A DNA stretch of 47,372 nt from an uncultured Bacilli bacterium (GTDB taxonomy: Bacteria > Bacillota_I > Bacilli_A > RF39 > UBA660). Every line of letters starts with the position of its first letter. Within the stretch, counting starts at the first letter, position 1. The stretch lies in NCBI GenBank assembly GCA_947630935.1, contig CANRJL010000001.1:1-47372 (forward strand), read 5' to 3'. The position numbers and the translations under genes were made by a program. The notes under the pieces are model-generated. The model worked only from the letters and a program-made list of their open reading frames with translations, did no database searches and had not been told where the DNA came from. This document shows positions 24,262 to 44,458 of this stretch, in pieces.

Positions 24262-25312
24262 GATTACTTTGATATCTTGGAACATTGGGGTTTATTTTAA
24301 GAGCTTTTTTTAAATATTTAATTGCTTCTTTAGGATGACCATTATAAAAATAAATAATACTTACTAAATCATAAAATGAATCATTCCAAGCAAATTCTTC
24401 GTTAATGTAAGATTTGCTTTTTTCTTTTATTTTTAAAGCTTCTTTGATATATTTTAAGGCTTTTGGATAATCTTTTGTTTGATAATAAAAATAGGCTATT
24501 TCAACATAAGGCTCTTTTAAGTATGGAGCTTCATAGATGGCTTTTTGATACCATAATTCAGTCTCAGGTAAATAATTTTTCTTAAAGTAACTTCTTGCTA
24601 TAAAACGCATTGAAGCGCATCGTTCGTCTGGCCAAGTGGCATTGGGACAAGCTAAATGTTTATGTAAAGTAGCAATGCATAAATCATTTTGATTATAAAA
24701 CATGTATTCTCTTCCTAAATAGTGTAAATTTCGGTCATCATTGGGGTCTTCTTTGACACTTAATTCTAAAAGTGGTAAATAATTAGCACGAGATTTGTGG
24801 GTATCTGGATAGTGTTTAATGACAATATCAGTTTCAATATATGTTTCTGGTTCAGAGGTTGTTAAGATTTCATGAACTGGATGAAGCCAAGTATAATTTT
24901 TTAAAGAATGAATTTTATCCTGTCTAAATGTGACTAAAGGAACATCAAATTCATTTAATTTCCAGTGATAAGTATAACGGTATCTGGTGTTATCTTGATG
25001 ATTCCATGCTTTTTCTAATTTTTCGCGCCAACCACTGACAATTACTTCATCTAAATCAAGACTACAACAAATATCTGCATCAGCCGGAAGCATTTTTAAG
25101 GCAAGATTGCGAGCTTCATCAAACCGCCAAGGAGTGATTATTTTTTCTTGGACAATAACTCCCCTTTCTTTTAAAAGTTTGACTGTATTATCAGTTGAAC
25201 CAGTATCTAATACATAAATTTCATCGGCTTCTTTGATTGAATCAAGCCAACGATTTACAAATTGTTCTTCATTTTTACTAATAGCATAGACAATTATTTT
25301 ACATTTTTTCAT
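24221..25312 (-). CDS. Glycosyltransferase family 2-like domain fused to TPR repeats
   Basis: 363 aa with GAGGGAGA RBS. The N-terminus (IIVYAISKNEEQFVNRWLDSI...YVLDTGSTDNT) is GT2-like. The C-terminal ~130 aa have TPR-like A/Y/K periodicity (AIYEAPYLKEPYVEIAYFYYQTKDYPKALKYIKEALKI). Confidence 0.7.
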   Translation of the reverse strand: MKKCKIIVYAISKNEEQFVNRWLDSIKEADEIYVLDTGSTDNTVKLLKERGVIVQEKIITPWRFDEARNLALKMLPADADICCSLDLDEVIVSGWREKLEKAWNHQDNTRYRYTYHWKLNEFDVPLVTFRQDKIHSLKNYTWLHPVHEILTTSEPETYIETDIVIKHYPDTHKSRANYLPLLELSVKEDPNDDRNLHYLGREYMFYNQNDLCIATLHKHLACPNATWPDERCASMRFIARSYFKKNYLPETELWYQKAIYEAPYLKEPYVEIAYFYYQTKDYPKALKYIKEALKIKEKSKSYINEEFAWNDSFYDLVSIIYFYNGHPKEAIKYLKKALKINPNVPRYQSNLKLMSESLKASHE

Positions 25313-25343: not shown

Positions 25344-25370
25344 AAAAAAAAAGTTTGTCTTATGACAAAC
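25344..25370 (-). terminator. Intrinsic terminator of the Pro-rich membrane protein gene
   Basis: GTTTGTC-ATAA-GACAAAC on the minus strand, overlapping the stop codon, followed by T9. Confidence 0.65.
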
Positions 25371-26847
25371 TACACTTATCACCTAAATTTTCATGGAATG
25401 TAGATATTTCTTGGAATGTTTGAGGCGCTTGTTCTAAGTTAAATTCGGCTTTTAAATCTTCAAGCTTCATTTCGGTTTTTAAAGATAATTTATTATCACT
25501 ATCTTTAAAAGTCGCTACTCCTTTATTGTTATCAATTGTGGAATTTTGATTATATTCTTCTTTGGCTTTTAAGTAGTCTTCAGACCCTTTAAATTGATAA
25601 TCTAATATTTTGTTAATTGAAACAATTTCGTTATTAGCAGATATGCCATATTTATAGCTACTTGTTACTGTAGCAGAGGTTGTTGTTTCTTCTTCAGCAT
25701 TGCTTACGCAATCTAGAACCATTACTGGAGCATTTTCAGTAACAATTAATGAAGCATTTACTTTAGTTTCATGATTTAAATCATCACGAATAGTTAATGG
25801 AATTGTATATTCGCCTTCTTTTTTAACTAATTCTTCTAAAGAAATTGTTTCATCCGCTATTATTATTTCACATTTATCTTCTAAAGATGGGTCTTCACAA
25901 CTAAGAACAAAATCTTCTAAAGATACATTAGTATTTGGAGTTGTGAATACTTCTTTTAATTCTACTTCTGGTCCTAGAGTATCATGAACAGTAATATCTT
26001 TGGTTATTGGTTGTTTTAATGATGGGCAAGTTATTGTATATGAATAATTGCCAGTCTCATTGATATTTATATTCGAAACATCTAAGGTACATGAATTAGC
26101 ATCTATTCCAGTAAAATCAGCAAAATCAGTTATTTTTGAGGAAAGTGTTTTTCCTAATTCCCATTCACTTATTTTAGGAGTTACGATTGTTTGAGGAGTT
26201 TTAGTATTAGCTATATTTAAAAAATAATATACACCCATGCCAATGGATAAGATTAAGATAACAACTAAAATAATGATTATAATCTTTTTAGTATTATCTT
26301 TCTTGTGTGGCTCTTGGACAGGCAAAGGGTTAGAATTTTCTGTAGGTGTGGCAATTCCCCCAAAAGTCGGTGGGTTTGTTTCAATTACATTAATATTATT
26401 ATTTACATTTGGTTGTTCAGATGCAATAGGTTGAGTCTTTTCTTCTGGTTTCTTTATTAATGGTGTATCAGCAGTTAAGGTACTTCCGACTAATGGCTCT
26501 GGAGTTGGGGTTGTTACTTCATTTACGACAACTCCCTCTGGTGCAAGATTTAATTCTTCTACTTGTTCATTAACTGGTTGAAGGTTTTCTAAAACACTTG
26601 GCTGGGAAGTTGGTTGTTCAGGTAAAATAGCAGCTTGCGGTGCTGGTTGGGGTGCCATAGGTGGTATAGGAGGCGTGATAGGTGTTGGTGGAATAGGGTT
26701 AATATTTTCGGATAAAGCTTCTACTTGTGGCGCTGGTTCGTTATTAGGTACAGGTGGTGTTTGGGTTGGTTGTAATGGTTCAACTGGTGGAGTTGAACCT
26801 GCATTTGAATTAGTTTCATTATTTAAATTTAAGTCATCAATATTCAT
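25360..26847 (-). CDS. Bitopic membrane protein: Pro-rich N-terminal region, TM, Ig-like extracellular domains
   Basis: Preferred start is ATG 26847 with GAGGGG 8 nt upstream (ORF-track start 26889 is TTG). About 200 aa rich in P/Q/T/N (PPTPITPPIPPMAPQPAPQ), TM KKIIIIILVVILILSIGMGVYYFL, then beta-rich sequence. Confidence 0.65.
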   Translation of the reverse strand: MNIDDLNLNNETNSNAGSTPPVEPLQPTQTPPVPNNEPAPQVEALSENINPIPPTPITPPIPPMAPQPAPQAAILPEQPTSQPSVLENLQPVNEQVEELNLAPEGVVVNEVTTPTPEPLVGSTLTADTPLIKKPEEKTQPIASEQPNVNNNINVIETNPPTFGGIATPTENSNPLPVQEPHKKDNTKKIIIIILVVILILSIGMGVYYFLNIANTKTPQTIVTPKISEWELGKTLSSKITDFADFTGIDANSCTLDVSNININETGNYSYTITCPSLKQPITKDITVHDTLGPEVELKEVFTTPNTNVSLEDFVLSCEDPSLEDKCEIIIADETISLEELVKKEGEYTIPLTIRDDLNHETKVNASLIVTENAPVMVLDCVSNAEEETTTSATVTSSYKYGISANNEIVSINKILDYQFKGSEDYLKAKEEYNQNSTIDNNKGVATFKDSDNKLSLKTEMKLEDLKAEFNLEQAPQTFQEISTFHENLGDKCSLS

Positions 26848-26939
26848 ACTGATTACCCCTCTTCTATTTTCATAATTAATATTATACAATTATTTTTTTA
26901 AAATAGCAACTATCTTTCTTTATGTGTTAAAGCTTAATT

Positions 26940-26962
26940 AAAAAAACATTGAATATTCAATG
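26940..26962 (-). terminator. Intrinsic terminator at the end of the Tad-like operon
   Basis: 16-nt perfect palindrome CATTGAATATTCAATG directly after the TAG stop, followed by T7 on the minus strand. Confidence 0.55.
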
Positions 26963-28000
26963 CTATTTAAAAATATTAAATAATTTACCATTTTTACTTT
27001 CAATATTTTGAGAGTCAAATCTATCAAAACCCATTTTTATTAAGAGTTCATCAATTTGTGGATAATTATCTAACTTATCATCTAAATATGGTAAATTAAA
27101 ATAAACCTTGCTACTTGATTCATATTCAAAATCAGTAACATCATTTTTATTTAAAACACTTCGATTTAAAATAATTTTTTTACCTTTTAATTTTTCAAAA
27201 ATTTTTTGGTCTCTTCTAATTAATTTATTTAATTTAATTAAACCTGGTTCAATTAAATAAAGAACGTCATTGCAATAATCTTCTTTGCCTTCTTCGTTTA
27301 AATCAATTAATAAAACATCAGCATTATAATTAGATGATATAAATTTTTGGAGTTCAAAATGATTGGTATTTTTTAAGGTACGGTCATTTAAGTAAATAAA
27401 ATCATTTTTATCTACTTCAACAGCAATTACTTTATATTTTTTTTCTAATTCTTTTTTTAACAAGTAAGTAAGAGTTGTACTTCCAGCATGGTCAGTAACA
27501 TTTTTAAGGCCAATAATACGAAGATGTTTTATTGGTTCTTCTTCTCTTTTTTCTTTATCTTTATTTTTCTTAGAATTAGAATGAGAAGCATGTTCTTCTT
27601 CATCATCAGTTATAAAACCACCTAATTGATGATATTGAGCAACATCTTTATAACTATTAGGGTTATCTATTAAAAAGTTAATAGAATCGATATTTCTGGT
27701 AAAATTATAAATTCCCATTGAAACTAATGCTGATAAATATTTGGGACTATTTACAACTTCAGAATCATCTAAAAGAATAATTACTTTACTCATGTCTAAA
27801 TTAACAGATAATTGTTGCATAGTTGTAATATTTTGATAATCTTTAATTGCTGTAATATCTAATATCATTTTGTTATAAAAGAAATTACTAAATTGAGCAA
27901 TTAATTCTTCGGGTGTAAATTCTCCAGATATACTTTTGATAATATCAATATCAAGATTATTTAGTAATGTTTCATATTTATTTACTACTTTTACATTCAT
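26963..28000 (-). CDS. TadZ/CpaE-like protein: receiver-like N-domain + ParA/MinD-like domain with degenerate Walker A
   Basis: 345 aa with AGGAGG RBS. Acidic/basic linker (DDEEEHASHSNSKKNKDKEKREEE). RIIGLKNVTDHAGSTTLTYLL...KVIAVEVD...DVLLIDL...IILNR follows the MinD/ParA strand pattern but lacks the GKT lysine. Confidence 0.5.
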   Translation of the reverse strand: MNVKVVNKYETLLNNLDIDIIKSISGEFTPEELIAQFSNFFYNKMILDITAIKDYQNITTMQQLSVNLDMSKVIILLDDSEVVNSPKYLSALVSMGIYNFTRNIDSINFLIDNPNSYKDVAQYHQLGGFITDDEEEHASHSNSKKNKDKEKREEEPIKHLRIIGLKNVTDHAGSTTLTYLLKKELEKKYKVIAVEVDKNDFIYLNDRTLKNTNHFELQKFISSNYNADVLLIDLNEEGKEDYCNDVLYLIEPGLIKLNKLIRRDQKIFEKLKGKKIILNRSVLNKNDVTDFEYESSSKVYFNLPYLDDKLDNYPQIDELLIKMGFDRFDSQNIESKNGKLFNIFK

Positions 28001-28012
28001 TTTAGTCCTCCT

Positions 28013-28492
28013 TTATTGCCAAGTTAAATCATCTATTGGATTGGTCATTTCTAATGTTGAGCCTTTAATATCAAAGGTAAGTAAATCACCAATTACAGGC
28101 AATTTGAAATTAAAAAATAGTTTTACTTCATATTTAAATTGATTGGCATTAGCACTACTGGATTGTGATTTTTGCTTTTTAATGCAATATAAATATCTTG
28201 TTTTATCATTAGATTCTACATATTTTAATTCTGGACTATTGAGACTTGATACACCATATTCTCCAGTTTTACAAGTATGAACTGTATTATAACTATTATA
28301 TGTTAGATAATTGTTAATGATATTGATACTTGTTTCTTGCACACCTTCATATTTTTCAATTATAGATAGTATTTCATTTTTTAATTTAAATGATTTACTA
28401 TAATTTAAAGATAATGATAAAAATGATGCAAAAATAAGAATAAAAGCTACAACTAAACCTAATAACCATGTAGACCCGATTGATTCTCTCAT
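28013..28492 (-). CDS. Pseudopilin-like (TadE/TadF-like?) protein
   Basis: 159 aa. N-terminus MRESIGSTWLLGLVVAFILIFASFLSL. The start overlaps the upstream stop (ATGA). Confidence 0.55.
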   Translation of the reverse strand: MRESIGSTWLLGLVVAFILIFASFLSLSLNYSKSFKLKNEILSIIEKYEGVQETSINIINNYLTYNSYNTVHTCKTGEYGVSSLNSPELKYVESNDKTRYLYCIKKQKSQSSSANANQFKYEVKLFFNFKLPVIGDLLTFDIKGSTLEMTNPIDDLTWQ

Positions 28493-29031
28493 GAAACTAC
28501 ATCACCTACCATTGTTTTCGTATCTCCTTTAATTTTAAAGTTAAAAATATTATGAAATATTGGCAAATCTAATTGATAAAAGACAATTACTCGATAGTAT
28601 AATACATTAGGAAGTTCATTCATTACACAATTTCCGCCATTACCACAAATTCTATTTTGAATATTTTTATCACTTTCGATTTTAGCAATGCAAAAAGCAG
28701 GATTTTTATCATCTGATTTGCCATTTCTTGAAAAGCCATGATAAGTAACTTTTTCATCATTAATATATTCATCGGTTGGGCATTCTCCTGTAACACGGTA
28801 TGCACTTTCATTTAAATAATTAGCAATTTCACAAATTTCAGTATTATCGTTTGAATTAACACATGATGTTGCCATCTCAATACCATTATAACTTTGAATA
28901 GTTTGAATTATTTTATCTTTTACATTAAATGCTTTGGACTGATTTATTGTAAGGCACATAAAGCCCGCGAAAAGCAAGACAAAAAATATAACTATTTGAA
29001 ATAGAAAACTGCCACCTATTGCTTCTCTCAT
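28489..29031 (-). CDS. Pseudopilin-like (TadE/TadF-like?) protein, Cys-containing
   Basis: 180 aa. N-terminus MREAIGGSFLFQIVIFFVLLFAGFMCL. Contains 8 Cys. Confidence 0.55.
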   Translation of the reverse strand: MREAIGGSFLFQIVIFFVLLFAGFMCLTINQSKAFNVKDKIIQTIQSYNGIEMATSCVNSNDNTEICEIANYLNESAYRVTGECPTDEYINDEKVTYHGFSRNGKSDDKNPAFCIAKIESDKNIQNRICGNGGNCVMNELPNVLYYRVIVFYQLDLPIFHNIFNFKIKGDTKTMVGDVVS

Positions 29032-29049
29032 CAGGCTACTCCTTTCTTT

Positions 29050-29313
29050 TTATCCTTTCCAAGGGCATTCAAATGTATTTTGGGTACTAGAGCAACTTTT
29101 TTGCTCACCATTTTGCTCAGTAGGCATACAACATTTTACGGTAATACAATTTCCAGAACTACATTTTTCACATACAGCTTGAGAGCATTTAGTATTTTCA
29201 TCCATATTTTGACGAATTAAAGGCCAAATAGTAAAATAGAAAAAGGCTGACAAAGCCCCTATTCCAATAACTATTGCTACTGTAATATTTAATTCGCCTG
29301 TTGCCTCTTTCAT
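29050..29313 (-). CDS. Pilin-like protein 2 (Flp-sized hydrophobic N-terminus + Cys-rich tail)
   Basis: 87 aa with perfect AGGAGG RBS. MKEATGELNITVAIVIGIGALSAFFYFTIWPLIRQ is followed by a 45-aa tail with 8 Cys. Confidence 0.65.
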   Translation of the reverse strand: MKEATGELNITVAIVIGIGALSAFFYFTIWPLIRQNMDENTKCSQAVCEKCSSGNCITVKCCMPTEQNGEQKSCSSTQNTFECPWKG

Positions 29314-29331
29314 TTATTCCTCCTAATATTA

Positions 29332-29598
29332 TTATGGATTTGGGTTTTCTGGTGAGCTTTCATCTTTGTATGTGCAAGAAAAAGTCTCAGATTCTCCAGG
29401 TATTGAACAGCCTGTACAAGTTCTCGTACCTCCTACGCCTTCATCACAATTCGTACATTGAGCAGCAGCACATTTTGTATTGTTTGTAATAGAATTTCTT
29501 ACAGTTGGCCAGACAAATGCATAGAAGAATGCAGCTACAGCAGCTATTGCTACTACAGTGATAACAGTCATATTTAATTCACCTGTTGCTTCTTTCAT
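29332..29598 (-). CDS. Pilin-like protein 1 (paralogue of 29050..29313)
   Basis: 88 aa with perfect AGGAGG RBS. MKEATGELNMTVITVVAIAAVAAFFYAFVWPTVRN is followed by a tail with 6 Cys. Confidence 0.65.
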   Translation of the reverse strand: MKEATGELNMTVITVVAIAAVAAFFYAFVWPTVRNSITNNTKCAAAQCTNCDEGVGGTRTCTGCSIPGESETFSCTYKDESSPENPNP

Positions 29599-29675
29599 AA
29601 TATTCCTCCTAACTCTATATATAATTTTATTATATCTTTTTTTGCTTTTTTTATCAATAAATTTTTATTTGTTTA

Positions 29676-30464
29676 CTATACATTTAACATCATTAATAAG
29701 GCAAAGACTAGAAGAACCATTACTCCTACTCCTGTAGCTACAAGCATTTGCATTGTTTTCTTTTCCATTTTTTCTAATCGCTCTTTATATTTTAATTCCC
29801 GAGCCTTTTGTTGAAGATTAGAAATTGTTCTAGAAAACGCTAATAATTGTTCTTGCTTATGTTCTTGTCTTCCCAAAGATAAACGATATAAAAGACGCAT
29901 CATTCGCATTGAATCACGAACTGGGTAGGTTTTAGCAAAATTTATGTAAGGGTTTATAGTATTATCGCCGGAATTAATTTCGTTAATTAATTCTTGTAAA
30001 CCTTCTTTAAAAATTGGGGGAGCATCTTCAATAGACTTTCCTAAAGCTACAGGAACTGTATAATGTTGAATTAAGATTTCTAAGCTTTTTAAATAGTAAG
30101 GTAACATTGAATCAATATCATGTAAATGACGACGATAGTATTTTTTTAAATTACTATAGTCCATTTTAAAAACTAAATAACCAATTATTATTGAGAATAA
30201 AACGGTGATGTAAGAAATGTTTGAGATAAAGAAACATAATAGAACAACGATAATAATTAAGCCTCTTTTGACTCTTTTATTAAATAGAAAATCTGGGTTT
30301 ACTGAGTCACCATATCTTGCTCTTACATAAAAGTCCCAATCACTTTCTTTTAACTTTTGAAAATAAACTTCATTATCTGATACAAAACGATTGACACTGA
30401 TACGTCCGGTATAATTTAAAGCAAAGAATAAAATCAAGGCTAAAGCTATTATTTCAAAATACAT
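29676..30464 (-). CDS. TadC-like (T2SS F-family) membrane protein
   Basis: 262 aa. N-terminal TM, paired central TMs, a helical cytoplasmic domain and a C-terminal TM. The start overlaps the upstream stop (TAATG). Sits directly after the TadB-like gene. Confidence 0.6.
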   Translation of the reverse strand: MYFEIIALALILFFALNYTGRISVNRFVSDNEVYFQKLKESDWDFYVRARYGDSVNPDFLFNKRVKRGLIIIVVLLCFFISNISYITVLFSIIIGYLVFKMDYSNLKKYYRRHLHDIDSMLPYYLKSLEILIQHYTVPVALGKSIEDAPPIFKEGLQELINEINSGDNTINPYINFAKTYPVRDSMRMMRLLYRLSLGRQEHKQEQLLAFSRTISNLQQKARELKYKERLEKMEKKTMQMLVATGVGVMVLLVFALLMMLNV

Positions 30465-31360
30465 TATTCCACCCCCACATCTTCATAATAAAACCTTTCT
30501 CCTTTATATAAGAAGAAACAGTTTATCCAAATAATGGCATGGAGAATAAATTGAACATACCACATATCTAATAGTTTTAAATATGAAGCAGTGCCCAATA
30601 AAAATTGCATAGCCATAACTAATAAGAATAATGCTAGACCAAAAGTAACAAATCTTTTATGAAAATCAGCTCGGTCTATTTGGTCCCGATAAACTCCTTC
30701 AACTAGTGAGTCGATGTCCATTGATAAATTTTCTAATGCTTCACCAGAGTCTTTAGCGCCTTCTTTAGTTATTTGTAAAAATAATTGATTCATATTTTTA
30801 ACCATATAATAAGGATATTTTTTATTAAAGAAATCAATTGATTCATCGATAGTACCATTTTGATAAGACATATTTATCATGGTTTTAACATCTTCTAAAA
30901 CAGGGTTTTCTAAAATGCCAGAATCTCTTACTCCTTCAAGAGATTTAACAAAACTTTGCGTTGTTGTAAATTCCATAATGACATTGGTTGTATATGTCTG
31001 AATTTGTTCAAAAATAAATTCGGAATAAGCTTTTTGGCAGCGAAGATAAGCTAAAAAAGGAATAAATAAAACTGCTATAACTGCATATATAATAGCAACA
31101 ATTATATTGTAAAAATATAAATAAGATATAACTCCGGCAAAACCTGCAAATAAAATAACTTGGGTTATATATTGCCGAGGAGTATATTCTTGACCTAATT
31201 CTTTTACTTTTTCTCTTACTTTGACAAAACTATAATTGGAATATTTATTATAAGCATTGTTAATGCTTGTTGCAAAAAACTTATAAACATTTTCCCCATT
31301 ATTCAGATAATAGGATACAGCAAAAATGGCCAAAGCTAATAATAATATAAGTTCAATCAT
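30464..31360 (-). CDS. TadB-like (T2SS F-family) membrane protein
   Basis: 298 aa. The topology (N-terminal TM, two central TMs, soluble helical domain, two C-terminal TMs) and the position after the ATPase fit TadB/TadC. Confidence 0.6.
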   Translation of the reverse strand: MIELILLLALAIFAVSYYLNNGENVYKFFATSINNAYNKYSNYSFVKVREKVKELGQEYTPRQYITQVILFAGFAGVISYLYFYNIIVAIIYAVIAVLFIPFLAYLRCQKAYSEFIFEQIQTYTTNVIMEFTTTQSFVKSLEGVRDSGILENPVLEDVKTMINMSYQNGTIDESIDFFNKKYPYYMVKNMNQLFLQITKEGAKDSGEALENLSMDIDSLVEGVYRDQIDRADFHKRFVTFGLALFLLVMAMQFLLGTASYLKLLDMWYVQFILHAIIWINCFFLYKGERFYYEDVGVE

Positions 31361-31375
31361 TTTTATTCCTTCTTT

Positions 31376-32479
31376 CTATAGAGTTTCTATAGCGCTTTTT
31401 TGAGGTGATTCATTTACTTTATCTTCACCTTGATAAATATCATCTGGCAAAGTTATACCCGAAATGGCTAAATAATCTTTTAAATGTTTAGTTGGGTTGT
31501 TCATGGTTATTTCGCCTGTAAGAGTTTTTTGAAAGATGGTATTAACTTGGGCTTTATTATTTTCATCAACATAAAATTCACATATTTCCATAATTTCTCT
31601 TTGAAATCTGCCTAATTCTTTACTCATGTATCCTTTAACATATATTCCTATTTGAACATAACGATGGATAGTTGATAGAAACTGGTCAACATCAATATTA
31701 CTTTCTATAAGGGCAAACATTCGCAATGGAATTAAACTGGCTTTGTCAGAGTGAATAGTTGATAAAATATGATGCCCTGATGATATACTATTTCTAACAG
31801 CCATGACAGCTTCAGCGCTTCGCACTTCGGAAAGTAAAATCCAGATTGGGTTTTGCCGCATACAGGTTACTAAAACATCGGTATAACTGGCAATATTATT
31901 TGTTTTCATAGCAATTATATCACGATGAGGAAAAATGCGGTCTAGATGAAGCTCTAAGGTATCTTCAATGGTAATTATTTTTTCGTTTTCTTTAGTATGT
32001 GCGGCTAAATATTTGACAAGCTCAGTTTTTCCTGAACCTGTTTCCCCACTTACGATAATATTAGCATGACCTTCGACACATTTTAATAAAAAATCAAGTA
32101 GACTTGCCGAAACATATTTTTCGTTTAATAATTTTTCACGATTTAATCTTATTTTGGATGGTGTTTTACGAATTTGGCACGCAATACCATTCGTAGCAAT
32201 TGAATCGTGGATAAAGTTTAAACGAAGTTCTGCACTTTCAGCATCCAAAAAAGGATGAGCCATATTAAATGTTTTTCCCATAACATTAGCACATTGAAAT
32301 GCTAATTTTTCTAAAAGTGCATTATTTATTTCTGGCCTTTCTACTTGATAAACTCCTTTTGTAAGGGATTTTAACCAAACCTGTCCATTATTGTCATATG
32401 AGATATCAGTAATATCTTCGTCTCTTAGAAATTCTTCAATAGGTCCAAAATCTAATTGTGAAAATATTGCATCATTCAT
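31376..32479 (-). CDS. tadA: TadA/CpaF-family secretion ATPase (T2SSE/VirB11 superfamily)
   Basis: 367 aa. ITDISYDNNGQVWL, RLNFIH...IRK, Walker A SGETGSGKTE, ITIEDTLEL, Walker B-like IWILLSEVRSAEA and His box SGHHILSTIHS. Confidence 0.85.
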   Translation of the reverse strand: MNDAIFSQLDFGPIEEFLRDEDITDISYDNNGQVWLKSLTKGVYQVERPEINNALLEKLAFQCANVMGKTFNMAHPFLDAESAELRLNFIHDSIATNGIACQIRKTPSKIRLNREKLLNEKYVSASLLDFLLKCVEGHANIIVSGETGSGKTELVKYLAAHTKENEKIITIEDTLELHLDRIFPHRDIIAMKTNNIASYTDVLVTCMRQNPIWILLSEVRSAEAVMAVRNSISSGHHILSTIHSDKASLIPLRMFALIESNIDVDQFLSTIHRYVQIGIYVKGYMSKELGRFQREIMEICEFYVDENNKAQVNTIFQKTLTGEITMNNPTKHLKDYLAISGITLPDDIYQGEDKVNESPQKSAIETL

Positions 32480-32511
32480 TATGGCTCATCCCTTTCTATT
32501 CTTTTTATTCT

Positions 32512-33366
32512 TTAATTATTTGAATTGTTATTATTATTGTTGTTATTATTGTTATTGTTATTTGTATTACTATTTGTTCCTGTTGAAATTTGTTCATCAG
32601 GGATAACAGCAGCTTTAGATAGAATAAATTCTCTTACATAAGCACTGGCAACTTCTGTTTCGCCAGGATTTGCCGTATAATTTTTATTTCTTGGAACAGG
32701 AATTATATCTATTCCCGTATATTGAGCTTTACGTAATAAAGAATACATATCATCTGGTACAGCAAATAGTAATGATGCTGGGGTTCTACTTTCAGTTGAT
32801 GTTTCAAATACTGATTGTCCAGAACCATCACGAACATCTAAAACCCGAATACTCCGGATTAAATTAGTGTATATTAATTTATTATAATTGTCATTACCTT
32901 TAACCCATAAATCAATATAGTTTCCTGGGAAAATAGAATTTCCGTAAGTTGTATGAATATCTACTCCTAATTCAAATAGTGTATAACCATCTGGAATATC
33001 AGCAATTACATTATCAGGTTGACTTTCAGGAGAAACAATTGCTGATGTATAGAAAAAACTATTTTGAGGAATGGTTGTTCCATACATTACTTCTTTACCT
33101 ATTAATTGATTAGCATTTCTTATCATATTATTACTTTTACTTAATACAGCATTAGATACTTCCATATATCCTATATCATCAGCCGTAATAACGTGTCTTG
33201 ATGATAAAGCGTTTTTAGCATAAGGAATAGTTGTAGGATTGGTTGCTGTATTAACTCGCCAAGTATATCCTATATATAATACTAAGATTCCAGCTATGAC
33301 ACATATAATGGTTACAGTATTTTTGTTACTCAAAAATTTTTTAATTCTTGTTATTAAATTTCCCAT
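32512..33366 (-). CDS. CpaB/RcpC-like (SAF-domain) pilus assembly protein with a poly-Asn tail
   Basis: 284 aa. N-terminal TM (VTIICVIAGILVLYIGY), then a SAF-like segment (RHVITADDIGYMEVS...LIGKEVMYGTTIPQNSFF). The C-terminus is NSNTNNNNNNNNNNNNNSNN. Confidence 0.55.
   Translation of the reverse strand: MGNLITRIKKFLSNKNTVTIICVIAGILVLYIGYTWRVNTATNPTTIPYAKNALSSRHVITADDIGYMEVSNAVLSKSNNMIRNANQLIGKEVMYGTTIPQNSFFYTSAIVSPESQPDNVIADIPDGYTLFELGVDIHTTYGNSIFPGNYIDLWVKGNDNYNKLIYTNLIRSIRVLDVRDGSGQSVFETSTESRTPASLLFAVPDDMYSLLRKAQYTGIDIIPVPRNKNYTANPGETEVASAYVREFILSKAAVIPDEQISTGTNSNTNNNNNNNNNNNNNSNN
32515..32574 (-). repeat. (AAT/AAC)n low-complexity tract encoding poly-Asn
   Basis: Read directly: ATT/GTT triplets on the plus strand immediately above the stop codon. 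Confidence 0.9.
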
Positions 33367-33384
33367 TTTTATTCCTCCTTAATT

Positions 33385-33786
33385 CTAATTTCCTAATTCT
33401 AAAATAGAATCTACACGATTAACTATATCAAAAGATTCGGAATTAGAACTTATTTGATAAGTGTTGCTTTTAGTAGTAACTTGGACACCAGCTTTTGGTG
33501 GTGATTCATATATTTCGTAAAAGTCAATTTGATAAGTATTTAGATTAGCACTTTCAGCAAATCTTCTTAAAAAATTTTCAACATATTTTTCACGATTAAT
33601 ACGTAATTCACCACTTTCTCTGTAGTAGCCATAGTCGACAGCATCGACCATAGCTGCTTCAGATACTTCTTTAATTAAATAATAATCTTGGGTACTGGTT
33701 GTAGATACATTGGAAACTAACATCATGATAACTATGATAAATACGCCTAATGCAATTAACCAATATCCCCAATAGCTTTCTTTCAT
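33385..33786 (-). CDS. Pseudopilin-like small protein
   Basis: 133 aa. N-terminus MKESYWGYWLIALGVFIIVIMMLVS shares the M[KR]E[AS] start and single N-terminal helix with the four other subunit-like genes. Confidence 0.5.
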   Translation of the reverse strand: MKESYWGYWLIALGVFIIVIMMLVSNVSTTSTQDYYLIKEVSEAAMVDAVDYGYYRESGELRINREKYVENFLRRFAESANLNTYQIDFYEIYESPPKAGVQVTTKSNTYQISSNSESFDIVNRVDSILELGN

Positions 33787-33796
33787 CTATGCCTCC

Positions 33797-36700
33797 CTAT
33801 TTCCATGAAGGACCGACGCCAGTAACTCTATCTAAGCAAACGCCGCCTTGACAGTAATTTGTATTAGTCCATAAAACAAAATCTTCATTACGTTTATTTT
33901 CGGTGAAATAGTCATTTTCTTCACCAATATCTAAGAATCTTGATTTACAATTAACGCTGTAATCAACACCATTAATTGTATGATTTTCACAATAGATAGC
34001 ATCTTCACCACTTGCACTTAAACTACTAATAGTTGGAATTGCTGTGTTAGAATAACTGCCTGCTGCTTTGTTATATTTTCGCAAATTTATCATATTTTGT
34101 CTAGTTAAAGTATATGAATATTCAGATTGTGTATAAGCATATTCACCAGTTTCTTCAATTTCATTTCTGGTAACTTCAGCCTTTTTACTTGCATCAGTCG
34201 TATTTCCACTCGCTTGAGTTTGACCACTATTTTGACCTTCTGTTGAAGTTTGGCCTCCTGATTGACTAGTTGTTTTACCGCCATTTGATAAATTCCAGTT
34301 ATATCCAGTTTGGCGACAATTTTCAGTATTGCCATCTTTGCATTCATTTGGGAATAAATTGCCAGTTGTAACAGAACGGAAGACAGCTTTTGACGTTAAT
34401 TCATCATTATCTTCAATTTCATCTGATCCATCAACTATACATGTAGGACAATCTTTTTTAGAATCATTTGTAATATCACAAGAACCACCTTCACATGTTA
34501 CATGGCATGTTGGACAGTTGTTAATGTAATGACAAACATAACCACCATCAATACTTGTTGGAGTTGTAGTACCACATTTATTTTCTTCTGGTAAATTACT
34601 ATATGCTTCGATAACGCTTTTTACCTCTTCTGATTTGCCATCTTCGGCAGCATCATTAATTAATCTTCCTAACTCGCCATTGGTATTATTTTGACCAATA
34701 TTTTTAAAGTAGAATTTAAATTGGAACACTCCTTTATGTTGTCTTAATGATACTGGAAGTGAACTATCAGGAAGTCTTGTCCATAAGCAATCTTTATAGA
34801 CACCATTAGAATCTTGAATACATTGTTCAGCATTTACTTTAATTGCTCCATATTGAGTATAAGTAGAAAATTGGCCTCGTGGTACATAAACACCGGTGTT
34901 AGTTACTGTTTTTTGAACTCTTTGAACTGTATATCTTGTTTTATTTTCTAACTTACAAGTAGCATCATTACAACTTACTATTTGTTCAGTTGTTGTTAAA
35001 TTTTCTTTCATCTGTTCATCATTATAACTTTGACCAGTACATTTATATTCATCATTTACGTCCGTTCCACAATAAACATTTTTGGAATCAGTAGTTTTAC
35101 TTTTTTCGCTAAATGCTGGTAAATTGTCTTCTTTTTTAGTAACTATATCATTGTAGGCATTATCAACAGTTTTTTCATCATTATTATCTTCACCATAAGT
35201 ATATTTAATTATAGGATCAAATTTCATATCATTTGTCCATTCTGTACATTGCTTGTAGCTATTTTGAACATTTTCTAAAGCTTGTTTAGCATTATTATAT
35301 GTCTTTTCAGCATCATCTTTTTTAGCTGTAAATGTTGATTTTACACCATTAAATGTTGATGTTACTTTAGCTTCAGTCAATTTATTCTCTTCATCTGGTT
35401 TATAAATATACCATACATATTGAGCTTGGAATTCATCGCTAGCTCCTTCAGCAACAGTTTCTGGAGCACTTTCTTCGGCTTTTTTATATTTAATATATTC
35501 ATTGAAAGCATTTATTAAATTTTGTTGAGCAGTTTTAACATCTTTCAAATATTTAGTTTCATCAATACCTTTAGATGGATCAGTTGCTCCACTAATATAG
35601 CAATTTCGGGTGCCTTTTATAGTAGTTTCTAATTCGAAGTAACCACCACTTTGCGAATATTTAGCTGTTGGAACTGTAAAATTATATTCTTCATCACACC
35701 AAACTTTGCAATAAGGATTACCTTTAAAAATGCTTGTTGCTTCAAATGAATTATTCATTTGATCTGTATGGTCAATTACACATTTTTTTACTTGATTTGC
35801 ACTAGAATTACATTCTGTTGGTGTTCGATTTATGTCGCTTATTGTTCCCGAAACAGTAGATTCTGCATCAAAATCATTACATGTCGATGGAAGAGTTACA
35901 TTGGCAAAACAGTTAGTACAATATGTCTTGTAATCTTCACATGAAGAGCTATCGCCCTCTTTACATTCTTTTTCATATTTGCCACATTCACATTCTGTTT
36001 TATATTGTTCTTCACTAGCACATTCTTCACCATTAGAGCAAATATAATGTTTAACATCATCAATTTCTTCAATACTGCATTCTTTTGTACATTCTGCTAA
36101 ATATGTTGCTTCATTATCGTCTTCTTCACTTTCAGGATCTGGTCCATAGAATGTTGTTACACCATTTTTAGTAACTTTTTGGCAAGTTTTTTTACATTGA
36201 TTTAAATATGTTTTTTTAGTTGTAACTTTACCTTCTTTATCATAATATGTGCCATTATCTTCCCGACAGCCACATTGTTTAGTAAATTCTTCAGCATTTG
36301 CTAATTTGCTACCATCATTGCCATAATAAACACCATCAACAATTTCGCATTTATGATTTTCATCTTCTTGGCAAAGATCTGGAGAACAATGATAATTTTT
36401 TTCAAAAGTAGAAGCATTTTTATCATCTAAATACATTTTTTCAGTTGTTGTTTTGCCTGTAGGTTCATCATTTACTTTTTCTACTCTAGTTACTTCGTAA
36501 TAGTATTTACCTTGATTGTCTTTTTTACATTCACATGTGTCATTATCCCATACTAAATCTAAATCTGATAAATAGATATCATCTGAACCATAATTACGAA
36601 GAAGTAATTGATTTTGTAAGCTATAATTACGGTCACCATTGGAATTTATAGGGCCATAATAGGCAACGTTTGCCTGAGCTGAATGCTTATCACTCCAAGC

Positions 36701-37645
36701 TGTTTTTAAAGTTATTCCATATGCTTTGTTGTTTTTTTGAGCTTCTTTAAACTTGCCATCTTCCGTATTAACATGAATTATAAATTCAGCTTTTTTGCCA
36801 TTTTCACTTACTGTTATTAGTTTTTTATCATTTTCTTTTCTGATATTACATTTATAACCATATTCACAACTTACTGTAAAATCATCCCAATATACTTTTT
36901 CAATATTGCTAGCATTTTTAATTTCAATTGTAAGGATTTCACTATGGTCATTTTCATGTTCTACTTTTTTGATTTTTGTTTCCCATTTAGCATCCCAAAT
37001 GATTCCACTATCAACTAATGAATTATAGATTTCTTTAGCACTTTTACCTTTATTAGCATCACTATTTACAGAATTTCCAGCCTCAATAGCTTTTTGATAT
37101 ATTTCTTTTAAAAATTTAGTATCATTTTGCCAACTAGGCCAATAATTTGAATTTGTAAATAAGGTATCTTTTCGATAAGGTGCAACAGCATTTTGATCAC
37201 CACCAGTATCAAGTTTACCATAATATCCTTCAATTAATCTAAATAATGCTGTGCCTAATTTAACGCTTGTATTTGAACCTTTGCCTGCGCCAATTCCGGC
37301 GTCAATTAATTCTTGATAGCCAACCGTTAAAGCGACATCTAAGTCCTGTTTATTAGATTCCTGTGGATGAAGCGTTCTAATACATTTACTATTACTACCA
37401 GAATTATGACTTTTTCCAGGAGCCATGCAAAATAATTTACCGACTATGCCACCATTTACATAAGCATTATAATTATGAATTTCATGTTTACCTGCTGCAT
37501 AAAAGGCACCACCAGTAAGTGATACTCTAACTAACTCATATGGGCAAGTATAAACATTTAAATCAATTGTTGTTGCTTTGACTGGCAAAACTTGAAAAAA
37601 TGTTAAGATGCATACAAATGCAATTGTTTCTAATATCTTTTTCAT
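33797..37645 (-). CDS. Very large secreted Cys-rich protein (candidate adhesin or filament-associated protein)
   Basis: 1282 aa with AGGGGGA RBS. Sec signal MKKILETIAFVCILTFFQVLPVKA. Many Cys throughout (count not tallied), in C-x-C, CxxC and CPTC contexts. Residues ~371-556 carry YY-x-x-x-G modules like those in the sortase substrates. No cell-wall sorting signal or C-terminal TM. Confidence 0.8.
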   Translation of the reverse strand: MKKILETIAFVCILTFFQVLPVKATTIDLNVYTCPYELVRVSLTGGAFYAAGKHEIHNYNAYVNGGIVGKLFCMAPGKSHNSGSNSKCIRTLHPQESNKQDLDVALTVGYQELIDAGIGAGKGSNTSVKLGTALFRLIEGYYGKLDTGGDQNAVAPYRKDTLFTNSNYWPSWQNDTKFLKEIYQKAIEAGNSVNSDANKGKSAKEIYNSLVDSGIIWDAKWETKIKKVEHENDHSEILTIEIKNASNIEKVYWDDFTVSCEYGYKCNIRKENDKKLITVSENGKKAEFIIHVNTEDGKFKEAQKNNKAYGITLKTAWSDKHSAQANVAYYGPINSNGDRNYSLQNQLLLRNYGSDDIYLSDLDLVWDNDTCECKKDNQGKYYYEVTRVEKVNDEPTGKTTTEKMYLDDKNASTFEKNYHCSPDLCQEDENHKCEIVDGVYYGNDGSKLANAEEFTKQCGCREDNGTYYDKEGKVTTKKTYLNQCKKTCQKVTKNGVTTFYGPDPESEEDDNEATYLAECTKECSIEEIDDVKHYICSNGEECASEEQYKTECECGKYEKECKEGDSSSCEDYKTYCTNCFANVTLPSTCNDFDAESTVSGTISDINRTPTECNSSANQVKKCVIDHTDQMNNSFEATSIFKGNPYCKVWCDEEYNFTVPTAKYSQSGGYFELETTIKGTRNCYISGATDPSKGIDETKYLKDVKTAQQNLINAFNEYIKYKKAEESAPETVAEGASDEFQAQYVWYIYKPDEENKLTEAKVTSTFNGVKSTFTAKKDDAEKTYNNAKQALENVQNSYKQCTEWTNDMKFDPIIKYTYGEDNNDEKTVDNAYNDIVTKKEDNLPAFSEKSKTTDSKNVYCGTDVNDEYKCTGQSYNDEQMKENLTTTEQIVSCNDATCKLENKTRYTVQRVQKTVTNTGVYVPRGQFSTYTQYGAIKVNAEQCIQDSNGVYKDCLWTRLPDSSLPVSLRQHKGVFQFKFYFKNIGQNNTNGELGRLINDAAEDGKSEEVKSVIEAYSNLPEENKCGTTTPTSIDGGYVCHYINNCPTCHVTCEGGSCDITNDSKKDCPTCIVDGSDEIEDNDELTSKAVFRSVTTGNLFPNECKDGNTENCRQTGYNWNLSNGGKTTSQSGGQTSTEGQNSGQTQASGNTTDASKKAEVTRNEIEETGEYAYTQSEYSYTLTRQNMINLRKYNKAAGSYSNTAIPTISSLSASGEDAIYCENHTINGVDYSVNCKSRFLDIGEENDYFTENKRNEDFVLWTNTNYCQGGVCLDRVTGVGPSWK

Positions 37646-37661
37646 TTCTTATTCCCCCTTA

Positions 37662-38378
37662 CTAAATCTTCCTCTTTTTATTTCTTTTTATTTGAACAAT
37701 GATAGCAATCATCATTATTACTATAAGAACGGTGCCACCGATATACCAGTAAATTCTATTTTTAGATGCTAATTCTTCAGCTCCTTTAAAATAATTGTTA
37801 TTGCTATTTACATATTCATTTTGAATTTTTTCTTCATCTACTTCAATGTTTGTTGTAACATATTTTTCACAATAATATGCATCTTTATTTTCGCAAAGGG
37901 CTTGGTCAGCTAATTCATTATACATTGGAGTCAATACTTTTATTTCTCTTAATTCTTCATTAGAACATCCGGAAACATCGGAAAAAATTTTGATAGTATA
38001 AGTTCTTATCTTTTGAGTATCAGGAACTCTTAAAGAAAAACTACCATTAACTAAATCTCTAGCGTGATACTCTTCATCAATATGTTCTTCTTCATTTGTA
38101 ATTCGAAAATAAATTTGATCAGTTATATTGTATATTTTAACATTAAAATGTTCAGCAAAGTAATAACCACTATTCAAGGTATTAGCTATTTCATCAGATA
38201 CTTCTGGATGGGGATTACCTTCATAATCTTCTTTTACTCGTTCCATTTCATAAGTGCCTACGACATTAGCCGCAGCTGTACTGATTTCATTTTGTGTTTT
38301 ATAATCACATTCAGCATGTACTGTTTGGCTTAACAACGCACACATAGCAATTAAAAAAATTAACCCTTTTTTTCGCAT
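37662..38378 (-). CDS. Type I membrane protein, first gene of the Tad-like block
   Basis: Preferred start is ATG 38378 (MRKKGLIFLIAMCALLSQTVHA signal); ORF-track start 38438 is TTG. C-terminal TM YWYIGGTVLIVIMMIAIIV plus a KRNKKRK tail. Confidence 0.65.
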   Translation of the reverse strand: MRKKGLIFLIAMCALLSQTVHAECDYKTQNEISTAAANVVGTYEMERVKEDYEGNPHPEVSDEIANTLNSGYYFAEHFNVKIYNITDQIYFRITNEEEHIDEEYHARDLVNGSFSLRVPDTQKIRTYTIKIFSDVSGCSNEELREIKVLTPMYNELADQALCENKDAYYCEKYVTTNIEVDEEKIQNEYVNSNNNYFKGAEELASKNRIYWYIGGTVLIVIMMIAIIVQIKRNKKRKI

Positions 38379-38532
38379 AATTATTCCATCCAATCTAAAA
38401 TATATAAGTATTGTATCAAAATATCTTTTGTTTTTCAATCATTTTATACTTTTTCTATTTTATTAATTTCTACTATTCAAAAATGCTTCTTTATGATATA
38501 TTTTTAATTAGAAAAATAGATTGGAGTTATAT

Positions 38533-39249
38533 ATGAAAAGTATACATTTTAAAGAATTATTAAAGGCTTTTGGAATTATTTTATTGTATTTAGTTTTGGT
38601 TCCAACTTTTGTAACAATTATTTTTAAAATTTTTATTAAAGATATTAATAATCTTTCTATGGCTATTTTAGTAAATCTGATATCTTATTTTATAGATATT
38701 GTTATTATTTATCTTATTTATCATAAAAGTTTGAAAGAAGAATGGAAACGATTCATTAAAAATTTTAAAGCTTATGCCAAAATTGCTTTGCAAAATTGGG
38801 CTAAAGGTTTTCTAGCTATGTTTTTATTTAATTTTTTAATTATTTTAGTTTATCATAATATGGCGGCTAATGAAGAATCTAATCGTCAATTACTAGAACA
38901 ATTACCTATTTTTTCACTTATTTCTATGATCTTTTTAGGTCCTTTCTTTGAAGAAATTACTTTTCGAAAAGGTTTTAAAAAAGCTTTTGATAATCCCAAG
39001 ACATTTTTAATTGTTACTTCATTATTATTTGGTGGCGCTCATTTAATTACTAGTTTTGATTTGCATTCTTTTGATGCTTTTGTAAAAAGTCTTCCTCAAT
39101 TATTATACATTTTTTCATATGGCTCTTTAGGTTATTTTTTTGGAAAAGCTTATTATGAAACAGATTGTATTTTTACAAGTATTTTAGCTCACGTTTTGCA
39201 TAATGGTTTGACAGTTTTTATTTTATTATTAAGTGCTAGTCTTTTATAG
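38533..39249 (+). CDS. CPBP-family intramembrane glutamic protease (CAAX/Abi type)
   Basis: Preferred start is ATG 38533 (ORF-track start 38521 is TTG). Motifs EEITFRKG, FGGAHL and HVLHN lie in a polytopic membrane protein. Confidence 0.8.
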   Translation: MKSIHFKELLKAFGIILLYLVLVPTFVTIIFKIFIKDINNLSMAILVNLISYFIDIVIIYLIYHKSLKEEWKRFIKNFKAYAKIALQNWAKGFLAMFLFNFLIILVYHNMAANEESNRQLLEQLPIFSLISMIFLGPFFEEITFRKGFKKAFDNPKTFLIVTSLLFGGAHLITSFDLHSFDAFVKSLPQLLYIFSYGSLGYFFGKAYYETDCIFTSILAHVLHNGLTVFILLLSASLL

Positions 39250-44051: not shown

Positions 44052-44071
44052 ATTTTCACCTAAAAAAGTAT

Positions 44072-44406: not shown

Positions 44407-44458
44407 CTTCTTTAGTATTTTATGTTTAAATTTTTATTTTTTGACTCATATTAGTAAT

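Follow-up and report, generated by a model that had tools for sequence, protein, structure and literature searches.

The DNA studied here, and called the window in what follows, is a stretch of 47,372 nucleotides (contig CANRJL010000001.1 of assembly GCA_947630935.1) from an uncultured Bacilli bacterium of the RF39 lineage. On its minus strand, between 26963 and 38378, it carries an operon of 12 tightly packed open reading frames (ORFs). We read this operon as an offshoot of the Tad/Flp (type IVc) pili, specific to Firmicutes and strongly diverged, whose filament would display a giant secreted protein, and we give this reading somewhat better than an even chance. The evidence lies in the gene content of the operon, in the homologies of its proteins, in the pattern of their conservation, and in a relationship to conjugative plasmids.

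That the core of the system is Tad-flavored, as the original prediction from the bare sequence had it, is supported by a CpaB-like protein, by a profile match between one of the membrane proteins and TadB/TadC, by the GspF fold predicted for that protein, and by the TadZ-like fold of another. It was also borne out that the operon departs from the described Tad loci in its subunits, in the lack of a peptidase, and in the giant protein near its front. The suggestion of an undescribed variant stands in part: the operon does differ from the described Tad loci, but a related operon combining DUF5411, CpaF, and PilC/GspF has already been predicted (PMC9523054). What is apparently unreported is the link between the Tad branch of the type IV filaments and the conjugation modules of Gram-positive bacteria.

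An operon of twelve genes

From 5′ to 3′ on the minus strand, the genes and control sites are the following (aa, amino acids; TM, transmembrane).

38410-38438, minus: promoter-like site 5′ of the operon, TTGAAA-17-TACAAT with an extended TG (consensus match only)
37662-38378, minus: lead protein, 238 aa, with signal peptide, extracellular domain, C-terminal TM helix, and KRNKKRKI tail (type I membrane protein)
33797-37645, minus: giant secreted protein, 1282 aa, with Sec signal peptide and 52 Cys (4.1%)
33385-33786, minus: DUF5411 protein, 133 aa, with MKESYWG leader, one TM helix, and a small domain (Pfam PF17424, E 4.7e-56)
32512-33366, minus: CpaB/RcpC-like protein, 284 aa, with N-terminal TM helix and poly-Asn tail
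31376-32479, minus: secretion-superfamily ATPase, 367 aa, with intact Walker A, Walker B, and His box (Pfam T2SSE, 87 bits)
30464-31360, minus: platform protein A (mem298), 298 aa, a TadB/GspF-like helical membrane protein
29676-30464, minus: platform protein B (mem262), 262 aa, homologue of pLS20 gene 39
29629-29657, minus: promoter-like site in the 77-nt gap, TTGATA-17-TATAAT, 11/12 (consensus match only)
29332-29598, minus: pilin-like protein of class A, 88 aa, with MKEATG-ELNxTV, a hydrophobic helix of ~22 residues, and a variable Cys-rich tail
29050-29313, minus: pilin-like protein of class B, 87 aa, with 8 Cys and a conserved C-terminal ...C[VAP]WKG
28489-29031, minus: minor-pilin-like protein (pp180), 180 aa, with MREAIGG leader, TM helix, and globular domain
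28013-28492, minus: minor-pilin-like protein (pp159), 159 aa, with MRESIGS leader and TM helix
26963-28000, minus: TadZ-like protein, 345 aa, with receiver-like domain, variable acidic linker, and MinD/ParA-fold domain
26940-26962, minus: intrinsic-terminator-like hairpin CATTGAATATTCAATG followed by T7, immediately 3′ of the last stop (read from sequence)

The single-strand, tightly packed series that had been reported, with its overlaps, ribosome-binding sites, and terminator at 26940-26962, is confirmed by reading the ORFs, the junctions, and the hairpin. Neighboring genes are spaced by 10-32 nt, and the sole larger gap, of 77 nt, lies 5′ of the gene for the 88-aa pilin. The junction between mem298 and mem262 is TAATG, a 1-nt overlap, and that between pp180 and pp159 is ATGA, a 4-nt overlap; an AGGAGG ribosome-binding site sits 6-7 nt 5′ of both small pilin-like genes (88 and 87 aa). 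A generic terminator scan, which needs at least three G-C pairs, does not list the hairpin CATTGAATATTCAATG because its stem is A+T-rich. The ATG at 38378 is the likelier start of the lead gene, since the promoter-like site overlaps the alternative TTG at 38438. The second promoter-like site (29629-29657) is the best sigma-70-like consensus match of the region, and it suggests that the major pilin subunits are transcribed separately and more strongly.

Curated families recognize little of this. Scans of the 12 proteins with Pfam and NCBIfam identify the ATPase (T2SSE), the DUF5411 protein, and weakly the CpaB/RcpC-like protein, and they return no match for mem298, mem262, the four small TM proteins, the 345-aa protein, the lead, or the giant. 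A PADLOC scan of the same proteins was uninformative. Could the operon be a chance run of ORFs? It is not, because its order recurs in 80 related loci. These are the best 80 of 563 confirmed matches to the ATPase in a collection of one genome per species, and the comparisons of loci given below (individual loci carry L numbers) are made on stretches fetched around each of them.

Motor, platform, and pilin-like proteins

The Walker A motif SGETGSGKTE and the His box STIHS, both noted in the bare sequence, were borne out by alignment: together with the Walker B motif ILLSEVR, they fall on the catalytic motifs of CpaF, FlaI, and VirB11. To which of these branches does the ATPase belong? The NCBIfam models for VirB11, TadA-type, TrbB, and FlaI ATPases give 89-114 bits, all far under their cut-offs. 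The TadA-type model reaches 98 bits against a cut-off of 373, which leaves the protein outside TadA/CpaF, and the VirB11 equivalog TIGR02788 reaches 113.6 bits against 249.95, in the C-terminal domain only, which leaves it outside VirB11. Scores against the PDB are nearly equal for CpaF (66.9 bits), FlaI (65.8), and VirB11 (63.7). The nearest annotated relatives, obtained by tblastn of plasmids, are "CpaF/VirB11 family" ATPases of Firmicute conjugative plasmids, with 31-37% identity (31-34% in the tblastn search), coverage of about 90%, and E-values from 1e-34 to 1e-43; the plasmids are pLS20 (gene 37), pXO2, pXO1, pZB18 of E. faecium, and plasmids of Paraclostridium and Peribacillus.

We built a neighbor-joining (NJ) tree of 19 sequences and 224 columns. 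Small and distance-based as it is, the tree places the window clade with the ATPase of a distant relative, L081 (71% bootstrap), then joins the plasmid ATPases to them, and it sets the window and plasmid group apart from CpaF, FlaI, TrbB, and VirB11. Clustering with conjugative VirB11 had been named in the original prediction as an outcome that would speak against a filament. It is found in part: the nearest annotated relatives are ATPases of conjugative plasmids, but the group lies outside canonical VirB11, as it lies outside CpaF, FlaI, and TrbB. In the window, moreover, the ATPase gene is followed by genes for GspF-like platform proteins, not by VirB components.

The CpaB-like protein comes close to the curated models, with 26.4 bits for Pfam RcpC (cut-off 28.8) and 32 bits for TIGR03177, aligned lengthwise. 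A profile of its family matches Ralstonia CpaB with an hhalign probability of 91.9% (E 7e-7), which identifies it as CpaB/RcpC and upholds the CpaB-like label it had been given. Its relatives in L094 and L097 match RcpC and SAF.

The two platform proteins are harder to place. Neither mem298 nor mem262 has a T2SSF match in Pfam or NCBIfam, and PDB profile searches with mem298, with mem262, and with an alignment of fused platform proteins found nothing. Relatives of mem298 are rare, only 226 among 1.8 billion cluster representatives, and the full-length distant ones show no significant Pfam domain when scanned. The informative relatives are fused proteins of 500-750 aa, in which the N-terminal half corresponds to mem298 (hhalign 99.3%) and the C-terminal half to mem262 (hhalign 98.4%, E 4.7e-15); thus, mem298 and mem262 together make one two-module platform, like TadB plus TadC or like PilC. 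Compared directly by hhalign, mem298 and mem262 give E 0.053, and their relationship emerged only by way of the fused homologues. One of the fused relatives has a Pfam T2SSF match of 20.1 bits in its mem298-like half, below the 25.2 cut-off.

The AlphaFold2 (AF2) model of mem298 has a predicted local distance difference test (pLDDT) value of 85, and its top Foldseek match in the PDB is the cytoplasmic domain of EpsF (GspF), with TM-score 0.71 (target-normalised), root-mean-square deviation 2.9 Å, and a Foldseek E-value of 3.1, which is not significant. A diverse mem298 alignment compared with a small TadB/TadC alignment gives 91.7% (hhalign, E 7.6e-7) over 178 columns; the direct comparison of mem262 with TadB/TadC is weak (17.5%). 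On the model and the profiles, mem298 is taken to be a protein of the GspF/TadB family, and mem262 would belong to the platform family too, by inference through the fused homologues. The label of T2SS-F-like, first applied to both proteins, finds some support for mem298 in the TadB/TadC profile and the predicted GspF fold; as a family match it holds for neither, and it is not something that could be read from the sequence.

For the TadZ-like protein there is no sequence match in Pfam or the PDB, and an alignment of its family gives no sequence signal against Ralstonia CpaE. Its AF2 model (pLDDT 75) matches MinD, ParA, HypB, and FlhG in Foldseek with E-values of about 1e-5, and the best-ranked match long enough to cover both domains is 3fkq, the TadZ of E. 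rectale (E 1e-4). The alignment shows a degenerate P-loop (GLKNVTDHAGSTT) that has lost the Walker A lysine, so the protein probably serves as a scaffold, without enzyme activity. As with the platform, the TadZ-like label finds its support in predicted structure, the two-domain fold matching 3fkq; there is no family match behind it, and it could not have been read from the sequence. These structural assignments are made on predicted models, one of them from a shallow alignment.

Five small proteins of the operon share a leader M[KR][EQ][AS]xG followed by a hydrophobic helix, and dozens of orthologues keep the motif without variation. The class A and class B pilins, in which the N-terminus MKEATGELNxTV is invariant, are paralogues (hhalign 99.9%, E 8.5e-36), and so are pp180 and pp159 (hhalign 100%, E 9e-43), which both begin MRE[AS]IG. 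The DUF5411 protein, the fifth, is a candidate minor pilin. Type IV (pre)pilins are built in this way, with a short leader that ends in Gly and then a helix; the Flp signature is a different one. The description of these proteins as pseudopilin-like is accurate for that N-terminal architecture, and no likeness to pilins was found beyond it. The 88- and 87-aa pilins match no Flp family and give only a faint archaeal Pilin_N hit (E 0.09), and despite a resemblance by eye they show no signal against the single-TM proteins of 47-60 aa of pLS20 (p41). Distant relatives do have canonical motifs or ones like them: in L081, where the ATPase and platform genes stand in the same order, the pilin has the canonical Flp form G|GALIEF, and L097 has TG|ELV.

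The two proteins at the front of the operon had been described as a type I membrane protein and a Cys-rich secreted protein of 1282 aa, and the signal peptides, the TM helix with its basic tail, and the 52 Cys are all confirmed. The lead protein has no family match in Pfam or NCBIfam. The giant has no LPXTG motif and no anchor in its sequence; no Pfam domain is found in nine members of its family (the window protein and eight homologues), and a profile search of the PDB gives no sequence match. We propose that it is an adhesin or a cargo. The C-terminus of the giant, ...[IVLM]GP[SA]WK, is near-invariant in almost all of more than 60 homologues (L001-L080). Class B pilins end in ...C[VAP]WKG, and plasmid adhesins (Tie and others) share a different end, ...GWSxxDIxWLKK. 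These C-terminal motifs of the giant, the class B pilins, and the plasmid adhesins may be docking signals. A C-terminus common to the giant and Tie was considered and rejected (E 0.11).

Relatives in gut Bacilli and on plasmids

The genomes behind the best 80 of the 563 ATPase matches are almost all labelled as uncultured gut "Bacilli," "Tenericutes," or "Mycoplasma sp. CAG:776," and they also include "Coprobacillus sp. CAG:605" and Ca. Ventrenecus. The core order of lead, giant, DUF5411, CpaB (one or two copies, two in some loci), ATPase, mem298, and mem262 is kept in the 80 loci, with the lead gene upstream of the giant gene in 69. The block of pilin, minor-pilin, and TadZ-like genes directly follows the core in 34 of them.

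Across these loci, identity to the window proteins is 76-90% for the ATPase, 62-88% for mem298, 61-84% for mem262, 54-77% for the TadZ-like protein, and 42-82% for the DUF5411 protein, and it drops to 23-40% for the giant and 23-43% for the lead. This sharp split, together with a divergence of the flanks that approximately tracks that of the machine, points to a vertically inherited, conserved motor and a diversifying surface component.

Three further loci show other arrangements. L094 (9209-12774) has RcpC, memA, memB, and a TadZ-like gene, with the ATPase not adjacent. L097 (7599-16449) has DUF5411, CpaB, ATPase, memA, memB, a 52-aa pilin, and a minor pilin, and then a protein of 1305 aa. 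L081 (713-4424) has a single fused platform protein of 500 aa and a pilin of the canonical Flp type.

The relationship to plasmids extends beyond the ATPase. In each of the six plasmid loci that we fetched, the ATPase is part of the same module. A large surface adhesin is encoded upstream (annotated in five of the six; pXO2 has an unannotated gap at that place), and small genes follow; then come a single-TM protein of ~125 aa, the ATPase, membrane proteins of ~270 and ~245 aa, and a single-TM protein of ~120 aa; the module ends with small genes, TrbC/VirB2-like in some cases, and VirD4 lies further downstream in four of the six. By hhalign, the mem298 family matches pLS20 p38 (98.0%, E 2.9e-13), mem262 matches p39 (95.1%, E 3.3e-8), and the DUF5411 protein matches the p36 family (82.6%, E 9.7e-6); the match of pp180 to p40 is weak (47.7%). 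The genes for DUF5411, ATPase, mem298, and mem262 are therefore homologous, in order, to genes 36-39 of pLS20, and the order is the same in the six plasmids. NCBIfam gives nothing useful for the pLS20 p36-p41 proteins or for the small two-TM proteins. As the plasmid ATPase genes are followed by homologues of the two platform proteins, the plasmid module also looks Tad-derived, and not like the classical setting of VirB11. In the literature, p37 is a "putative VirB11," p36 and p38-40 are listed as "unknown," and Gram-positive elements are said to form no conjugative pili (PMC8557374). Efficient mating of pLS20, above all in liquid, depends on the Sec-exported adhesin Tie, the product of its gene 34; how Tie is retained at the surface is an acknowledged open question (PMC8092201; PMC8557374).

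Genes of type IV secretion systems (T4SS) flank the operon in nine related loci. Eight of the 80 (L004, L007, L008, L014, L015, L018, L022, and L075) have three additional genes immediately upstream or downstream, within 10 kb. They encode a VirD4-type coupling protein (T4CP; Pfam T4SS-DNA_transf, E 4.5e-55), a lipoprotein, and a wall hydrolase of the lysozyme+M23 (or NlpC/P60) type; among seven of the eight loci the T4CPs are 77-92% identical, and that of L075 stands at 58%. In the ninth, L067, the TadZ-like gene is immediately followed, at 15124-20470, by two VirB2-like genes and by VirB6-like, VirB3-like, and VirB4-like genes, of which the VirB4-like call comes from phmmer (E 7e-14), the VirB2-like calls from weak Pfam matches in sister loci, and the VirB6- and VirB3-like calls from inspection by eye. 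Where the pilin block is missing, a two-TM protein of 104-147 aa (..IWQIIGWVLW..GMIDLGKAVVASKDDEIKKS..) can follow mem262, as in L057 (12880-13227), L046 (12889-13254), L060 (12847-13290), and L014 (20531-20911); we call it VirB2-like because of a weak Pfam T4SS_pilin match (24 bits, below the cut-off). The 47-kb window itself has no VirD4, VirB4, VirB6, or relaxase, and is thus not the setting of a conjugation operon. No relaxase homologue was found in any locus searched.

Proposed function, rivals, and neighboring genes

How far does the operon resemble the systems already described? Examples of the Tad type are the Caulobacter Cpa system, the Aggregatibacter Tad system, the Bifidobacterium breve Tad system, and the TadZ locus of Eubacterium rectale. 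With them the operon shares a single ATPase of the CpaF/FlaI/VirB11 branch, CpaB/RcpC, and very small pilin-like proteins accompanied by larger ones with the same leader; its platform, split in two, would correspond to TadB plus TadC, and its two-domain protein is TadZ-like in predicted fold. It differs from them in that none of its proteins reaches the threshold of a curated Tad family and its ATPase lies outside the CpaF clade; in its MKEATG-ELN leader, which lacks Glu5/Tyr6, its Cys-rich pilin tails, and the degenerate P-loop of its TadZ-like protein; and in opening with a membrane protein and a secreted protein of 1282 aa. The classical tad operon of Bulleidia (Erysipelotrichales) is differently organised.

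The 5′ module of the pLS20 family (genes 34-40) likewise begins with a large Sec-exported protein without a sortase signal and continues with the p36-p39 homologues in order. In contrast to the operon, the plasmid modules lie inside conjugation operons with VirD4, VirB4, VirB6, and relaxase, and the plasmids lack CpaB, a TadZ-like protein, and Cys-rich MKEATG pilins. Adhesins of the pLS20 family carry thioester, isopeptide (CnaB), or MucBP domains, whereas the giant of the window has no known domain. It is not a TIE-type adhesin by domain content, and what the two have in common is a Sec signal, a large size, and the lack of an anchor.

A "secretion-related" operon of Roseburia, Ruminococcus, and Eubacterium has been predicted computationally by natural language processing (NLP; Miller et al. 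2022, PMC9523054). Compared by its description only, it is similar in having DUF5411, a CpaF-type ATPase, a PilC/GspF-type protein, and a large surface/invasion-like protein, and in occurring, uncharacterised, in Gram-positive gut bacteria; it differs in being from Clostridia, in having a recognisable PilC/GspF, and in that no CpaB, TadZ-like protein, or Cys-rich pilins are reported for it. A conceptual parallel, a conserved motor with a variable terminal protein, is the Tad-like Kil apparatus of Myxococcus, which is reported to have Tad pili with adaptable tips (PMC12075869). That likeness is one of concept. Kil belongs to a diderm, has a secretin, and kills prey.

How would such a machine work? 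We infer filament formation, leader cleavage, and the attachment of the giant, as we do every functional statement that follows. A hexameric ATPase (367 aa) would dock on a platform split in two (298 and 262 aa, TadB/TadC-like), and the CpaB-like protein and the TadZ-like pseudo-ATPase scaffold would position the machine. It would pull two abundant Cys-rich pilins and the three minor-pilin-like proteins (DUF5411, 180 aa, and 159 aa) out of the membrane and polymerise them, giving a short pilus or pseudopilus across the cell wall. This filament would hold or display the two Sec-exported front proteins, neither of which has a sortase signal or a wall-binding module, probably via the minor pilins, and the lead membrane protein may serve as a partner of the giant. 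In this way, a conserved machine would carry a variable adhesin, for attachment to other cells, to the host, or to particle surfaces. The same module would have been incorporated into, or donated by, conjugation operons of the pLS20 type, where it would present a mating adhesin.

Several observations weigh against this reading. The TadZ-like and GspF-like assignments come from predicted structures and from profile matches of ~92% probability, not from curated thresholds. The Flp motif G/XXXXE[YF] is absent from the window pilins, which read MKEATG-ELN(M/I)TV, and cleavage of their leader is only putative because the Glu is at +1 and not at +5. Profile comparison of the minor pilins and the DUF5411 protein with Ralstonia TadE gives no signal, and neither do the C-terminal regions of the giant and Tie share significant similarity (E 0.11). 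About 45 of the 80 loci have no block of pilin, minor-pilin, and TadZ-like genes next to the core. The node of the NJ tree that unites the window clade with the plasmid clade has only 64% bootstrap among the 19 sequences. Finally, no prepilin peptidase (TadV/CpaA, A24) was found in the window or within 10 kb in the ~80 loci, by family scans of the window ORFs and by a phmmer search of low sensitivity with Ralstonia TadV as the single query. Bifidobacterium breve keeps tadV elsewhere in its genome, and by that analogy a peptidase missing from the locus is not unusual in itself.

The closest rival to the displayed filament concerns its purpose. The operon could be the mating-pair-formation part of a chromosomally fixed (domesticated or integrated), pLS20-like conjugation system or T4SS, with VirD4, VirB4, VirB6, and VirB2-like pilins encoded elsewhere, and with the transfer of DNA or protein, not adhesion in general, as the reason for the contact. 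Four core genes do have genes 36-39 of pLS20 as their closest annotated relatives; 8 of the 80 loci have a genuine T4CP within 10 kb, together with a wall hydrolase and a lipoprotein, L067 has VirB2-, VirB6-, VirB3-, and VirB4-like genes directly 3′ of the TadZ-like gene, and VirB2-like two-TM proteins follow mem262 in loci without the pilin block. But the 47-kb window has neither a T4SS gene nor a relaxase, its flanks are chromosomal sporulation and housekeeping genes in conserved synteny, none of the loci searched has a relaxase homologue, and on the plasmids nothing corresponds to CpaB, to the TadZ-like protein, or to the Cys-rich pilins. We consider this alternative unlikely, and it overlaps with the filament that we propose, in that it differs on what the filament is for and not on what it is. 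Suppose instead that the operon encodes an exporter resembling type II secretion (T2SS), in which a short pseudopilus pushes the giant and the ectodomain of the lead through the peptidoglycan and releases them. The giant does have a signal peptide and no anchor, an ATPase, a GspF-like platform, and pseudopilin-like proteins are common to T2SS, and the related Clostridial operon was classed as "secretion-related" by the NLP study (PMC9523054). The accessory set of CpaB, TadZ-like protein, and tiny, Flp-sized pilins is nonetheless of the Tad type and not of the T2SS type. We know of no demonstration of a T2SS-like piston in a monoderm. The plasmid counterpart of the cargo, Tie, moreover, acts as an adhesin bound to the cell (PMC8092201), and we regard release as quite improbable.

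Least probable of all, and in our view barely credible, is an appendage or coat system linked to sporulation, with the Cys-rich subunits and the giant forming disulfide-cross-linked fibres on the spore surface. Cys-rich subunits do recall coat and exosporium proteins, CotZ, SpmA/SpmB, DacB, and SpoVE are encoded in the window, CotZ synteny is found in 10 loci, and in L014 SpoIVA lies downstream, as judged by eye. But these genes are mere chromosomal neighbors, on the opposite strand or past unrelated genes, and homologous modules are found on plasmids of Enterococcus, a genus not known to sporulate. Both a secretion-only and a spore-surface role are less likely than the displayed filament.

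If the displayed filament is right, a large and conserved family of type IV filaments has been missed by the curated thresholds of Pfam and NCBIfam, and an abundant, barely studied gut lineage would have a surface organelle with a fast-diversifying tip or cargo, a likely determinant of colonization. It also proposes a testable function for genes 36-40 of the pLS20 family and their "VirB11," and it speaks to the published question of what keeps the sortase-independent TIE adhesin, needed for mating in liquid, on the cell. It would, further, tie Tad-type filaments evolutionarily to Gram-positive conjugation, which bears on mating-pair formation where classical conjugative pili are absent. A bolder version, which we offer tentatively and think rather doubtful, is that the operon and genes 36-40 of pLS20, pXO2, and the pHT-type plasmids are together an unrecognised branch of the type IV filaments, one in which a short pilus derived from Tad carries a giant adhesin that has no anchor. 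If that were true, some Gram-positive conjugation systems would build a pilus for mating-pair formation after all, of type IV-filament origin and not from VirB2, and we would have an answer to how the TIE adhesin stays on the cell. The module would have become fixed in the chromosome of gut Bacilli and expanded with CpaB, TadZ, and disulfide-rich pilins, and it would possibly still work with a conserved chromosomal T4SS.

The setting of the operon is chromosomal in character (~29% G+C). The window also encodes UvrB, P-type ATPases, a sortase, CotZ, SpmA/B-like proteins, a D-Ala-D-Ala carboxypeptidase, and an FtsW/SpoVE protein. On the upstream side, the CPBP protease, the metallophosphatase, and CotZ stay syntenic in up to 23 loci. 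A recent mobile element in the window was rejected, given the conserved synteny of the flanks, a flank divergence that approximately tracks that of the machine, and no integrase or relaxase seen; a prophage or a defence system was rejected as well, with no phage or defence matches and a chromosomal context. Divergent from the operon is one more gene, conserved in position:

38521-39249, plus: CPBP/CAAX-type intramembrane protease (Pfam Rce1-like, E 1.6e-13)

The position of this protease is kept in 23 related loci. A CPBP protease is also found just upstream of the adhesin gene in pZB18 of E. faecium. The protease of the window could be a processing enzyme of the system or a coincidental neighbor.

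Directly downstream of the operon, at 25360-26889 on the minus strand, is a gene for a protein of 509 aa whose N-terminus is rich in Pro and Thr and which has a single TM helix and an extracellular domain; it has a weak match to the CD1107-like family of mobile elements (E 1.5e-4, below the cut-off), and none of the 80 related loci has a counterpart. Downstream of the operon in L014, two genes look by eye, from their N-terminal sequences, like those for SpoIVA (15764-17242) and pyruvate kinase. The sporulation genes of the window, at 40165-40587 and 41903-45583, encode CotZ, SpmA/SpmB-like proteins, a DacB-type carboxypeptidase, and SpoVE/FtsW. The host appears to be a walled spore-former, though public records often label the lineage "Tenericutes" or "Mycoplasma."

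What looks like a second surface-structure cluster, at 5135-14374 on the minus strand, resembles the SipW-type fibre or pilus loci. It encodes a 1279-aa protein with a filamin-repeat match, a 217-aa protein, a 374-aa protein with S24/S26 signal-peptidase domains, a DUF5305 protein (391 aa), and a 715-aa protein without a match. The sortase of the window (22684-24261, plus strand) has an N-terminal extension of ~350 aa with a TM segment, and a gene for a fusion of a GT2 glycosyltransferase with TPR (24221-25312, minus strand) converges on the sortase gene, the 3′ ends of the two overlapping by ~40 nt.

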